Assembly: GCA_964016885.1 (NCBI GenBank)
Contig: OZ024756.1
Span: 37,200,001-37,264,000, forward strand
From: Eledone cirrhosa
Lineage: Eukaryota
Reading direction: 5' to 3'
DNA length: 64,000 bases
The notes beneath the pieces were generated by a model, which ran no database searches, was not told the origin of the DNA, and saw nothing but the letters and a program-made list of their open reading frames with translations. The translations under genes and the position numbers were made by a program. This document shows, one piece after another, positions 5,124 to 62,453 of the stretch. The stretch's first letter is position 1. Each line of letters begins with the position of its first letter.

Positions 5124-5215
5124 TCCAGAAATAGCCGTCGAAACGGCTTGAGCTCTGCCGTCGAGGTTAAACATTTTCCTATTACCCACTCTACTATTAC
5201 CACACTTCCTTCGTT
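5124..5215 (+). mobile_element. Family B half-hammerhead cassette, internally deleted, single arm
   Basis: ccagaaatagccgtc-GAAA-cgg cttgagctctg ccg-TC^-gaggtt, followed by the family tail and (TA)n. Confidence 0.7.
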
Positions 5216-5248
5216 ATATATATATATATATATATATATATATATATA

Positions 5249-5566
5249 TACAATATTAAATAAATGGAAACTATATTTATAAAACCATATTTATTTCATA
5301 TATATATTTCAGGGATATCATATTAACAATATGCTATGCCTTCCTCAGACAAAATACAATATAAACAGTTTTATAGATAAATAGATTTGACATAACCGTA
5401 ACAACATCGACTTGTATTTGAAATATATATAATGAAATAAATATGGTTTTATAAATATAGTTTCCATTTATTTAATATTGTAAATATACTCCAAATACTT
5501 GTCGAGTGCTTTTATATCAGTTATAAATATTACTAGTTGTAACCCAACAATTTAAATATAACTTTC
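5249..5566. mobile_element. Family C HHR cassette with inverted arms (5249-5311 vs 5419-5482); HHR on minus strand 5292-5356
   Basis: Minus strand: tattttgt-CTGAGGA-agg c atagcatatt gtt aatatgatat c cct-GAAA-t atat ata-tgaaata. Flanked by (TA)n on both sides. Confidence 0.75.
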
Positions 5567-6643
5567 CATATATATATATATATATATATATATATATATA
5601 TATATATATATATATATATATGTTATATCTTGGTTGATATTTGATAATAACAGGTAAATTAATCACTACAACTAAATTGACCAAATTTATCCCCACCCTA
5701 CAGTCCACCCCACCCATCCGATTCAGATATACTTCCACCCGTCCTTGTTATACGATAGTATCTGTTCACCTCCATCACCATCACCATCTTCTATCACAGT
5801 AGGTGGTGGTTCAAGAGACTTAGAATGCCACAACTTTCCACAGCTATCTGGCAATCCTTGTGTGAAGTAAAGCCACATGTTAGGGGTTCATCGTCCATTA
5901 ATCCAGCCGGAAATAACACCTTCTCTCCCTTTACACGGATGAGCACGTGGCTTACTGCTCCACTTCCGTCACTTTCACACTTACATAAACATACTCGCAT
6001 ACATTATATATATATATATATATATATATATAAATATATATATTGATATATATATATATATATATATATATATATATATATATATATATATATATATATA
6101 TATATAAATATATATATATTGATATATATATATATATATATATATACTATATATATATATATATATATATATATAAAATATATATATTGATATATATATA
6201 TACTATATATATATAAATATATATATATATATATATATATATAATATATATATATATATATATATATATATTTATAAATATATCTATTGATATAAATATA
6301 TATATATATATATATATATATATTTAAAATATATATATATATAGAGAGAGAGAGAGAGACAGAGAGACACACACACACACATATATAAACAAACGCACAC
6401 ATACACATACATAAACAGATGCACATACACATTCAAAATAGAGAGACACACAAGCACAAACAGGCATACTTATACATGAACACATACATAAATACACACA
6501 CACACCACACACACACACACACACACACATACATAAAAACAGACAGAACATACACATAAACACACACATACATATACATAAACTGGAATACATACATAAA
6601 CAAACATGCACACAACATACACACATAAACACACACATATATA

Positions 6644-6824
6644 TAATTGTTTCTACTTTAGGCACAAGGCCAGCAATTACCCAGTGTATTACTGGTACTT
6701 TATTTTATCGACCCCGTAAGGATGAAAGGGAAAGTTAACTTCGGCGGGATTTGAAACTCAGACCATAAAGGGCCGTAACTCTATGCTGCAAAGCATGGCG
6801 TCATACCTCTACCGATACTTCCAA
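6644..6824 (-). mobile_element. tRNA-derived SINE (short-tail subfamily)
   Basis: Matches the SINE consensus and lacks the gtcgat..atcgac hairpin segment. Confidence 0.9.
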
Positions 6825-6850
6825 TAATGTATATATATATATATATATAT

Positions 6851-7053
6851 GAAAAAGTGTGACCCCCGACGGCAGAGCTCAAGCCGTTTCGACGGCTATT
6901 TCTGGACTATTTTAGTCCAGAAATAGCCGTCGAAACGGCTTGAGCTCTGCCGTCGGAGTCATACTTTTTCCTATTTCCCACTCTACTACCCTAAGTATTG
7001 AGTACTCTGGTGCGTTATGGTCCATCTGGTTCCTTACCACATTTCCTTTGTTA
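6851..7053. mobile_element. Family B fold-back half-hammerhead cassette
   Basis: Palindrome 6851-6971 centred on ctggacta-ttt-tagtccag, plus tail containing gtattgagtac; (TA)n on both sides. Confidence 0.8.
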
Positions 7054-7213
7054 TATATATATATATATATATATATATATTATATATATATATATATATT
7101 AAGTGTTAAACAAGATTCAATGAGTACATCAAAGAATGAGTTTTACAGTAGATTGGAATTACCTTGATTAAATCTTAACCATTTAACATCTCCCGGTATG
7201 TCATGTATCATTA

Positions 7214-7267
7214 TATTTTGTCTGATGAGGACGTACTGTTGTACCTCTGAAATATGTATAATAACAT
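7214..7267 (+). ncRNA. Minimal type I hammerhead ribozyme (family C)
   Basis: tattttgt-CTGATGA(7222-7228)-gga c gtac tgtt gtac c tct-GAAA(7249-7252)-t atgt ATA^-ataacat. Confidence 0.7.
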
Positions 7268-59334: not shown

Positions 59335-59680
59335 CACCTACACCTACCTGGCCACCCCACCTAGCTGACCACCCCACCTACCTGGCCACCCCTACCTAGC
59401 TGGCCACCCCACCTACCTGGTCACCCCACCTACCTGGCCACCCCTACCTAGCTGGCCACCCCTACCTACCTGGCCACCCCTACCTAGCTGGCCACCCCAC
59501 CTACCTGGCCACCCCACCTACCTGGCCACCCCACCTAGCTGACCACCCCACCTACCTGGCCACCCCTACCTAGCTGGTCACCCCACCTACCTAGCCACCC
59601 CACCTACCTGGCCACCCCACCTACCTGGCCACCCCACCTACCTGGCCACCCCACCTACCTGGCCACCCCTACCTAGCTGC
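59335..59680. repeat. 17-bp minisatellite
   Basis: Unit ccccacctacctggcca. Confidence 0.95.
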
Positions 59681-60103
59681 CTACAGATCCCTGTCTACTT
59701 CTCACCATACCTGCCTACCTACCTGGCTACACTCTTCCGTTGTCACCTCTTGACACGGTCTGGTGACAATGGGACAGTTAATACATTACCATACCACAGC
59801 ATCACCACTACACCACCACCACTACACCACCACCACTACACCACCACTACACTACCACCACTACACCACCACTACACCACCACTACACCACCACTACACC
59901 ACCACCACTACACCACCACCACTACACCACCACTACACCACCACCACCACCACTACACCACCACCACTACACCATCACTACACCACCACTACACCACCAC
60001 TACACCACCACTACACCACCACCACTACACCACCACTACACCACCACTACACCACCACCACTACACCACCACTACACCACCACTACACCACCACTACACC
60101 ACT

Positions 60104-60228
60104 GGCAGTTGCCCGGGTGCCCCACGAGGATAGGGGGCCCATTTGTGAGTGGTTGTGTAGGTAGGGGCCCCAGTGCTCTGCTTTGCCCGGGGGGGGGGGG
60201 GGGTTATAATGCTGTTAAGACGGCCCTG
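60104..60228. mobile_element. Single end of a non-autonomous DNA transposon (terminal ..ttaagacggccctg)
   Basis: CAGGGCCGTCTTAA-type terminus with ggggccc/tgcccgg subterminal motifs. Confidence 0.55.
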
Positions 60229-60230
60229 CT

Positions 60231-60530
60231 ACACCACCACACCATCTCATCCCCACACCACCAAGCCTCCAGACCGCCACACCACCACACCATCTCATCC
60301 CCACACCACCAAGCCACCAGACCGCCACACCACCACACCATCTCATCACCAGACCACCAAGCCACCAGACCGCCACACCACCACACCATCTCATCACCAG
60401 ACCACCAAGCCACCAGACCGCCACACCACCACACCATCTCATCCCCACACCACCAAGCCACCAGACCGCCACACCACCACACCAACTCATCCCCACAACA
60501 CCAAGCCACCAGACCGCCACACCACCACAC
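60231..60530. repeat. 48-bp minisatellite (~6 copies)
   Basis: Unit acaccaccacaccatctcatccccacaccaccaagccaccagaccgcc. Confidence 0.92.
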
Positions 60531-61207
60531 AGTCACACTAAAACAACATTAATGAATAATTAAACTCAGTTAGCATTAATTAATTGATGTATTAATTACC
60601 CCACCCACTACACCGTACCTACCACCTACCAATAGCACCAGCTTCACCGAGACCACTGCACACCACCTTTACACACGTCACACCGCCACACACCATTGTC
60701 ACACCATACACCCACTTTACACTTCTGCTCATCATTGTCATACCACACACCACCACCACTACCACCACCACCACCACCACCACCACCACCACCACTACCT
60801 CCAAACCACCACCACCACCGCCACCGCCGCCACCACCACCACCACCACCACCACCACCACAACCACTACACTGCCACACGCCATTGTCGCACCACTGTTA
60901 AACACAGACACCACAATAATATTTCAAACAACCACTACACGCCATCACCACACACAAACGCCACACGACCATGGCAAACAATCACCAACACCACACACCA
61001 CCACCACCAGCACACACCACCAGCACACACCACCACCACACACCAACACCACACTCCACAAACCCACACCACACACCACACACCACCACCACCAGCACAC
61101 ACCACCAGCACACACCACCACCACACACCAACACCACACTCCACAAACCCACACCACACACCACACACCAGCACCACCACCACCACCACCACCACATTGA
61201 TACATAG

Positions 61208-61372
61208 GAGTAAACATGGCTCTGGGGGTTAAGATGTTCGATTAACAACAACTAGGCTTTGGGTTCGATCTCTCTGCGCACAAACCTGGGGAACCGTCTT
61301 CCACTAAAACCTCGAGGTGACCACAACACCTTATGAACAGATTCTGGTAGACGGAAAGTGGACAACGCCCAT
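61208..61372 (+). mobile_element. Diverged tRNA-SINE (second family; tail fragment also at ~12345-12412)
   Basis: tggctctgggggtt (A-box-like), gggttcgatc (B box), tail tggtagacggaaagtggacaacgccc. Confidence 0.65.
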
Positions 61373-62274
61373 AATACATTTATATATATATATATATATA
61401 TGATAAAATATATCGATATGTATATATAATTCTATTTTTCATACTTCAATTTATTGAATAACAACCGTTATGTACATTTCAAAGACTCCATCTAATTTTT
61501 ATGTAACAATAACTTAAGTTAGGTGCGACATCATCAGATGTCATTTTACAAAGTTGGTGATATATAGAGTAAAAGACGTGTTGTTGATTGTCTAACATTC
61601 GGTTAATATAAATATTGTGGAATGCTAAAGAGTTGGCGGGAAGAGTCTTGGAGAGAGGGAGAGAGAGATGGATAGATAGAAAGAGAGATAAGTGAGTTGG
61701 ATGGGGAGTGGGAGAGTTAGACAAGAAGATAGAAGATAGAAGATAGAGAGAGAAAGAGAGAGAGAGAGAGAGATAAAGAAAGAAAGACAGAAAGAGACAA
61801 AGAGAGACAGAGAGAGACAAAGAGAGACAGAGGAAGAGAGAGACAAAGAGAGAAAGAGACGCACAGAGAGAGAGAGAGAGAGAGAGAGAGAGAGAGAGAG
61901 AGAGAGAGAGATTTATACAAAGAAAAATGAGTTTTTCGGCCTCTCTGCCGTTCAGTTATCTCTTTCGTCTCCACCACCATCTCCTCTATTTCTAATTTCA
62001 CTGCCATTCGCGTTCATCTTCGCTACCTCGTTAATACCATATCTTCTGCCACCTCTCACTCCTCCCTCATAAACTTCACCTCTTCCCCCTCCTCCCCCTC
62101 CTCCTCTTCCTTCCTTTATATATATCTACCTTCTCTACTGTTAAGTCTAACACCCTCTCAAATCTCTCTCTCTCTCTCTCTCTCTCTCTCTCTCTCTCTC
62201 TCTCTCTCTATATATATATATATATATATATATATATATATATATATATATATATATATATATATATATATATA

Positions 62275-62453
62275 TAGGAAAAAGTATGACCCCGACGGCA
62301 GAGCTCAAGCCGTTTCGACGGCTATTTCTGGACTCCGTCGAAACGGCTTGAGCTCTGTCGTCGGGGTCATACTTGTTCCTATTTCCCACTCTACTACCCT
62401 AAGTATTGAGTACTCTGGTGCGTTATGGTTCCTTACCACAATTCCTTTGTTAT
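62275..62453. mobile_element. Family B fold-back cassette
   Basis: Palindrome centred on gacggctatttctggactccgtc, plus tail; (TA)n on both sides. Confidence 0.8.

Follow-up and report, generated by a model that had tools for sequence, protein, structure and literature searches.

How does a genome come to hold copy after copy of one half of a ribozyme, most of them joined to an inverted partner? The question is posed by a 64,000-nucleotide (nt) stretch of the genome of Eledone cirrhosa (assembly GCA_964016885.1, contig OZ024756.1, positions 37,200,001 to 37,264,000), hereafter the window, in which a preliminary description had noticed eight half-hammerheads, termed family B. All eight are found at the positions given for them, and a 20-mer probe yielded nine matches in the window against none in 100 shuffles. 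Judged by sequence, family B is a piece of 61 or 138 nt, comprising a pseudo-long terminal repeat (pLTR) or this repeat plus a tail, from just upstream of the open reading frame (ORF) of a Hydra-type Penelope-like element (PLE). The copies, called stubs below, are probably products of two-sided priming at two internal sites of the element's RNA, each cDNA having run off a likely capped RNA end that lies in the loop of stem II of the hammerhead.

Positions are numbered from the A of TTAGTCC, which is +1. Each stub is made of one or two arms. The outer end of the short arm is fixed at CCTAT (+61), and the long arm, or tail arm, carries an extra tail of 77 nt beyond the point at which the short arm ends; both features had escaped the preliminary description.

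The parent element

Longer copies of family B were collected by searching the 3.0 Gb assembly. Upstream they carry the 5' half of the hammerhead, a 3' untranslated region (UTR) of ~0.9 kb, an endonuclease (EN) and a reverse transcriptase (RT), and in loci L062, L063 and L068 the order is RT, EN, ~0.9 kb of 3'UTR and then the full hammerhead. On the other side, the 77-nt tail leads without a break into that ORF's own 5'UTR and its ATG. It is from this continuity with the hammerhead and with the RT–EN ORF, and from the Hydra-type motifs described next, that family B is assigned to a pLTR plus tail. The pLTR is arranged as a partial tandem, the 3' end sequence preceding the ORF start in loci L156, L158, L163, L174, L179 and L180. 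Among 30 loci picked for the start of the ORF, L155 begins at +2, L162 at +5 and, read by eye, L159 at +1.

Pieces of RT (YRDDG) and of a C-terminal, GIY-YIG-type EN (AYIGLT) occur in order in L091–L097. The marks listed for the Hydra clade are DKT, a CxCx5C linker, CxxC and CxH, and RWK (in the cited part of PMC8557442). Here HSDKTGN is found in L092, RCNCPDRSTC in L096 and RPCNLCSEE..LLNKKDELVTACK in L097, so that DKT, the linker and an EN with CxxC and CxH around E and N are all present; the N-terminal motif, read by eye from DNA, is RWR instead of RWK, and homologues have one or the other. CCHH was not seen by eye in the protein pieces. The protein has 517 homologues, the best at 54% identity, and a Pfam search left four protein pieces and five homologues all unnamed. 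No intact ORF was seen among the RT and EN pieces. The element is accordingly filed by its motifs as Hydra-type, and not as a proven member of the Hydra clade.

Other elements were met at the same loci. At 31-1671 of L096 (plus strand) lies a further RT ORF of Hydra type, in which a long, low-complexity insert precedes the WFN motif, and a GIY-YIG endonuclease piece of a different PLE type adjoins a family B element at 463-807 of L029 (plus strand). The minus strand of L093 holds an 816-amino-acid open RT frame of a non-LTR element, presumably RTE-like by its motifs.

The hammerhead in long copies

As first described, the stubs match a hammerhead's 3' half; the hammerhead is of type I and belongs to the pLTR of a PLE. 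It had also been expected that master copies with the 5' half upstream would read gacccc-CTGANGA-gacggct; such masters exist, but they read TACCCC-TTGANAA-GTTCGGCTA. Likewise, CUGANGA is indeed missing from all eight window copies, but this is no loss of the ribozyme peculiar to stubs, as intact copies too have UUGANAA. Twenty-five full copies were selected by their flanking sequence, the 7-nt box being left free; of these, 17 have exactly UUGANAA, two CUGAGAA and six some other departure. CUGANGA occurs in none of the 25 and A8 in every one. U3-A8 in place of C3-G8 is a described variant of PLE hammerheads (PMC4209133, in the part cited).

The minimum-energy fold of L066 is a three-helix junction with GAAA, the G10.1-C11.1 pair and an NUH site (z -2.99). 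L175 is nearly three-helix, L279 folds into three helices (z -0.40) and L139 folds otherwise. In a four-subfamily alignment, 94.6% of cells are paired and three stem II pairs show double changes, figures to be read in the light of the relatedness of the rows and of a structure taken from one of them. An Rfam search of L066 returned no hammerhead match. The long copies are thus described here as a predicted type I hammerhead with a non-canonical box.

Subfamily B3 (L139, L049, L216) has the box CUGAGAA and hence a C3/A8 mismatch; it is abundant, with many near-identical arms, and the ribozyme may be dispensable in it. The window also holds hammerhead-like motifs of other kinds. A separate repeat with CUGAUGA..GAAAC is present in three copies at 2349, 40108 and 56268 (plus strand), forming a second hammerhead-like family, and a third, AT-rich repeat with CUGANGA..GAAAU is present in four, at 7222 (plus) and at 5348, 38013 and 39109 (minus). 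Further CUGANGA..GAAA motifs lie at 2107 (minus), 2145, 14207 and 21200 (all plus), and those at 2107 and 2145 form a head-to-head pair that keeps the CUGANGA box.

Ends of the arms and geometry of the pairs

Arm ends were surveyed in 994 kb of unselected sequence, made up of the window, 130 kb beside it and sixteen 50-kb blocks, which hold 113 arms in 74 insertions. The 48 insertions in the 800 kb outside the window block scale to ~180,000, as an order of magnitude only. The arms have two fixed 3' ends, at +61, between CCTAT and TA, and at +138, between CGT and TA, each beside a TA within the element: 50 arms end near +61, 47 have the tail and 16 end in other ways. TA repeats adjoin all 50 short ends and 41 of the 47 tail ends, and 94 of the 113 arm ends overall. 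Folding of +1 to +240 gave no clear structure marking +61 or +138 (z -1.46).

At their 5' ends, the arms pile up at +1. Four of the 113 extend beyond -100, one ends at -28, eight at -19 to -5, 14 at -4 to -2, 20 at -1 to +1, 11 at +2 to +3, 20 at +4 to +9, 13 at +10 to +22 and 22 later; 51 therefore fall at -1 to +9, and 108 at or after -19. Short T runs at -1 to -3 can match by chance. In contigs of one public sample, depth falls ~75-fold across +1 (from 2.8 million to 37 thousand), a drop that is inflated by upstream subfamily divergence and that comes from what may be the source of the assembly itself; loose ends in these contigs pile up at positions 2139 (which is +1) and 2142 of L158.

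Head-to-head pairs number 39, and 36 of them join a tail arm to a short arm, which is to say that they are inverted 5'-truncated copies with the 77-nt tail at one end; two are short plus short and one is tail plus tail. The two arms of a pair need not be of equal reach. In 10 of the 36, the 5' reach of the short arm exceeds that of the tail arm by 10 nt or more, and in four of these ten the two arms share no sequence at all, the tail arm starting at +62 to +80. These four look like two primers on one RNA. When the unselected pairs are pooled with 20 picked by their tails, the short arm reaches further in 19 and the tail arm in six (p = 0.015).

Two other arrangements deserve mention. L303 has the same several private changes on both arms, which points either to a diverged RNA as its source or to conversion of one arm by the other, and L047 (1281-1600, minus-strand reading) has two identical single tail arms in direct tandem with (TA)n between them.

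An extra G at the centre

Where two +1 ends meet with a single base between them, 402 copies genome-wide have G:C at that place and 62 have A:T, despite T being the element's own templated base at -1. The G:C is thus untemplated. Between two +4 ends, which serve as a control, the untemplated G:C is found in four copies and the templated A:T in 637, an odds ratio of ~1000. In the first 40 of the 402 copies, all on contig C1, the G belongs to the tail arm in 17 and to the short arm in 17, with six unscored; the 40 span at least eight sequence variants. As the G falls on either arm and the variants are so many, the G centres are not one clone, and the view of the preliminary description that the events are independent is upheld. 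A hand tally of the first 50 of the 64 two-base centres gave 27 with G at -1 of at least one arm, the centre being CG in six and GC in none.

In L1, the extra G at 5' ends comes from the cap. The word TTAGT(C/T), in which +1 lies, is kept in all four subfamilies although the surrounding loop differs, and we take it to be initiator-like from the initiator consensus. Untemplated G at the 5' ends of L1 insertions has been reported (PMC4729875, in the part cited). The possibility that TTTAG is a splice acceptor joined to a short upstream exon or leader was rejected, since the bases before the G vary and the G stands alone in the 402 centres.

The copies in the window

The six copies described at 6.9, 41.4, 41.8, 42.05, 56.07 and 62.3 kb are head-to-head pairs, and the five centre sequences quoted for them are all present; the copies at 5.1 and 52.8 kb are single arms. 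The arms are as follows.

5124..5214, plus strand: single arm from +3 to +75, followed by the remnant of a deleted tail, with CCTTCGT as its last letters ahead of (TA)n; without inverted partner
6847..6909, minus strand: short arm, reaching 5' to ~+1, with the +61 end lying in (TA)n
6907..7053, plus strand: tail arm, 5' end at -3 to -7, 3' end at +138 in (TA)n
41331..41459, minus strand: tail arm of subfamily B4 that stops at +1 and has an untemplated G at -1
41467..41593, plus strand: second tail arm of the 41.4 kb pair, from +14
41662..41802, minus strand: tail arm, -3 to +138
41806..41868, plus strand: short arm, -3 to +61
41934..42062, minus strand: subfamily B3 tail arm, from +12
42057..42096, plus strand: short arm from +22, joined over a 6-nt AGCCGT/ACGGCT microhomology
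52821..52881, plus strand: decayed single B4 arm, +8 to +69
56014..56069, minus strand: short arm, +6 to +61
56070..56204, plus strand: tail arm, +6 to +138
62274..62334, minus strand: short arm reaching exactly +1
62335..62452, plus strand: tail arm starting at +14

The centre at 62.3 kb is asymmetric, since its short arm reaches +1 and its tail arm begins only at +14. Both arms of the 41.4 kb pair are tailed, which makes it the sole tail-plus-tail pair among the 39. Its TTTGATGAG had appeared to be a candidate catalytic box, which was rejected when B4 masters showed it to be junction filler plus +1. The 42.05 kb copy turns on a small AGCCGT-CGAA-ACGGCT hairpin (+12/+22) and not on stem II. 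A SINE-like repeat (SINE, short interspersed element) lies at 6650-6830, beside the 6.9 kb copy, and also adjoins copies in L032, L045, L054 and L066. Rfam searches of the window gave, among the best 150 of 558 matches, only microRNA matches driven by microsatellites.

Probable two-sided priming and proposed cap run-off

The course of events that we favor is as follows. A capped RNA would start at the A of TTAGT(C/T), that is, at +1, and the element's endonuclease would cut both strands of a (TA)n target. One cut end would then prime reverse transcription at +138 and the other at +61, and each cDNA would run to the 5' end of the RNA, where the RT would copy the cap as C and so leave the extra G. 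The two cDNA ends, trimmed by 0–10 nt, would finally be joined head to head. With the start site inside stem II, the front of the RNA would hold only the 3' half of the ribozyme, so that the half-hammerhead would be built in and not be the product of a fold-back. Penelope transcription is known to start in the pLTR (PMC2377424, PMC8557442, in the parts cited). With purified Poseidon protein, both strands are cut and then extended from two internal start sites that delimit the tail (PMC11167929, in the part cited), and this in vitro result is the closest experimental support for two-sided priming.

Several observations weigh against this account or fit it imperfectly. The evidence for a start at +1 consists of DNA footprints. 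The 5' stop is not a single base, because 22 of the 113 arms run past +1 to end at -2 to -19, and 115 exact matches exist for a B4 pattern that extends to -14. The spread may owe something to dispersed starts or to a stall in the loop. Six other ORF-bearing copies extend upstream of +1. As to the pairs, the opposite asymmetry, with the tail arm reaching further, is found in four of the 36, one of them being a mis-paired arm, and the contrast of 10 with four in the unselected set is not strong (p = 0.18); a further 22 pairs are symmetric within 10 nt, which fold-back with later trimming would give equally. The extra G also has its difficulties. The local automated count of untemplated bases at -1 is weak (G 15, C 12 and A 2 of 29), several of the C's having proved, when sorted by eye, to be the mirror of a G or a mismatch of the partner. 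Double-cap (CG) centres are rare, at those six of 50 as against 402 with a single G, and the model gives no detailed account of this. An RT that added C at any blunt RNA end would yield the same G with no cap.

Alternative explanations

The preliminary description had proposed that cDNA snaps back on the stem II hairpin and primes itself, and self-priming for PLE palindromes has already been proposed in print (PMC3846280, in the part cited). In its fullest form, this reading has the RT stalled by stem II, a cDNA that folds back and primes itself, and centres trimmed afterwards by palindrome instability. Breakpoints do lie in the 3' strand and loop of stem II, yet a product of this kind is expected to keep the 5' strand of stem II, which is found at none of 30 centres; the inner 5' strand is reached by one of the 36 tail arms, and most arms stop short of it in the 3' strand or loop. 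The near symmetry of 22 pairs, the 22 arms that end at -2 to -19 and the identical private changes on the arms of L303 all suit a fold-back. The pairs in which the short arm reaches further (10 of 36), and the four without shared sequence, do not, since fold-back of a tail cDNA cannot give a further-reaching short arm without later deletion; such deletion could have produced part of the asymmetry. The hairpin at which the 42.05 kb copy turns is real, with 6 bp, and the copy could be a fold-back on this small structure outside stem II, but L060, with its tail arm at +22 and its short arm at +12, is the mirror of that join. Moreover, a centre consisting of a single G is unable to prime itself, that G may belong to either arm, and the fixed +61 end is left unexplained. 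The snap-back on stem II is thus not borne out, and fold-back as the main route is largely refuted; even with trimming, we rate it as quite improbable.

Two-sided priming might also have taken place with +1 as an uncapped RNA end or a strong RT stop, through a nuclease cut or a pause in the loop, the RT adding C without a cap. The geometry of the pairs and the pile-up fit this equally well, and so does the spread of 5' ends from -19 to +10, but addition of the G is seen at +1 ends and not at +4 ends, the A at +1 is initiator-like and retained by four subfamilies whose loops differ, ORF-bearing copies start in the +1 region, and other PLEs start transcription in the pLTR (PMC2377424, PMC8557442, in the parts cited); we regard it as unlikely. 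That the palindromic derivative is itself mobile was an alternative already raised; it would then be a non-autonomous family descended from a small number of source stubs. Every stub has a presumed promoter, L303 gives the impression of a copy from a diverged source, and certain centres are found hundreds of times over (402 and 637 exact matches), but the same single-G centre has its G on either arm (17:17) in at least eight variants, the sample of 40 copies already points to centre types that do not track descent, the 30 unselected centres are nearly all different, and the variants match long, ORF-linked subfamilies, which leaves very little room for such a family. An ordinary miniature inverted-repeat transposable element (MITE) inserted at TA would likewise be short, palindromic, TA-flanked and of high copy number, and any target-site duplication would be hidden within (TA)n. 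The ends here differ (+61 and +138), however, the centre varies and no matching terminal inverted repeats surround a fixed body; as long copies are continuous with the RT–EN ORF on both sides, this explanation is refuted, and its chance is negligible. Non-LTR retrozymes, which are tandem units each with a complete hammerhead (10.64898/2026.07.22.740005, in the part cited), were also considered and rejected, the stubs being dispersed and without the 5' half.

A possible counterpart of strong-stop DNA

Retroviruses achieve full-length copying by strong-stop transfer, in which the DNA jumps through a repeat. The stubs could be the Penelope counterpart of retroviral strong-stop DNA, that is, failed jumps from both target ends, a suggestion that we offer tentatively and consider doubtful. 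The RNA would start at +1 with half a ribozyme, and the complete ribozyme at its 3' end would cut at +41. A cut there would remove both RT start sites from the 3' copy, so that the RT could start only in the front copy. From there it would run to the cap and jump, via the repeat of +1 to +41, to the RNA's 3' end; the jump would make a full element and rebuild the tail, and failed jumps would leave the ~10^5 two-armed stubs. None of 75 long arms showed the scar of a template jump, either as a G at -1 or as a scar excess at +1. If the suggestion were true, and the predicted U3-A8 ribozyme cleaved, a single explanation would cover the inverted pLTR, the tail and the hammerhead of PLEs.

Comparison with known systems

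The origin of inverted ends and tails in PLEs has been called an open question (PMC8557442, in the part cited). Precedents exist for inverted pLTRs, for tails at one side, for targeting of (TA)n and for U3-A8 cores. A literature search found no promoter-proximal two-armed PLE stubs with a cap-like G placing the RNA start inside the ribozyme, a result on which the supplements of the papers may bear. Some 10^5 natural products would here map a likely transcription start to the base; family B, moreover, would display two RT start sites in vivo and favors two-sided priming, and a start site that splits the ribozyme suggests a testable role for it.

With the EN+ PLEs of the Hydra clade (PMC8557442, in the part cited) the element shares DKT, CxCx5C and a C-terminal EN with CxxC and CxH, as well as insertion in (TA)n, partial tandems and inverted 5'-truncated copies with a tail at one end. 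It differs in having RWR for RWK, a tail of 77 nt rather than 30-40, a length of ~3.2 kb or more, and a U3-A8 hammerhead with a long stem II, and in that stubs of 61-138 nt far outnumber long copies. PLE hammerheads (PMC4209133, in the part cited) share the U3-A8 core, as in Cercyon of Schistosoma, the G10.1-C11.1 pair and a palindromic loop 3, whereas here stem III is of 5 bp, stem II is of 9 bp with a further 35-45 nt interior, and B3 has C3/A8.

L1 twin priming, in which two target ends prime on the RNA, gives an inversion whose arms are not known to overlap. Here, in contrast, the four pairs among 36 are alone in sharing no sequence, and most arms both run to +1. Twin-priming inversion itself and the extra G at complete 5' ends are common to the two (PMC4729875, in the part cited).

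Poseidon of Anolis, studied in vitro (PMC11167929, in the part cited), has in common with family B two internal RT starts that bound a tail at the junction of pLTR and ORF, the cutting and extension of both target strands, and the use of uncleaved RNA as template. Its starts lie within the ORF and have no homology to the target, whereas those of family B lie upstream of the ORF beside TA; cap run-off and two-armed stubs are not described in the cited part of that account. Finally, the Penelope palindromes of Adineta (PMC3846280, in the part cited) resemble the stubs in their inverted pLTR, the palindrome at the junction, the optional tail and an initiator-like word in the pLTR. They are read there as self-priming on an antisense template, whereas the footprints in Eledone cirrhosa favor two-sided priming on sense RNA.

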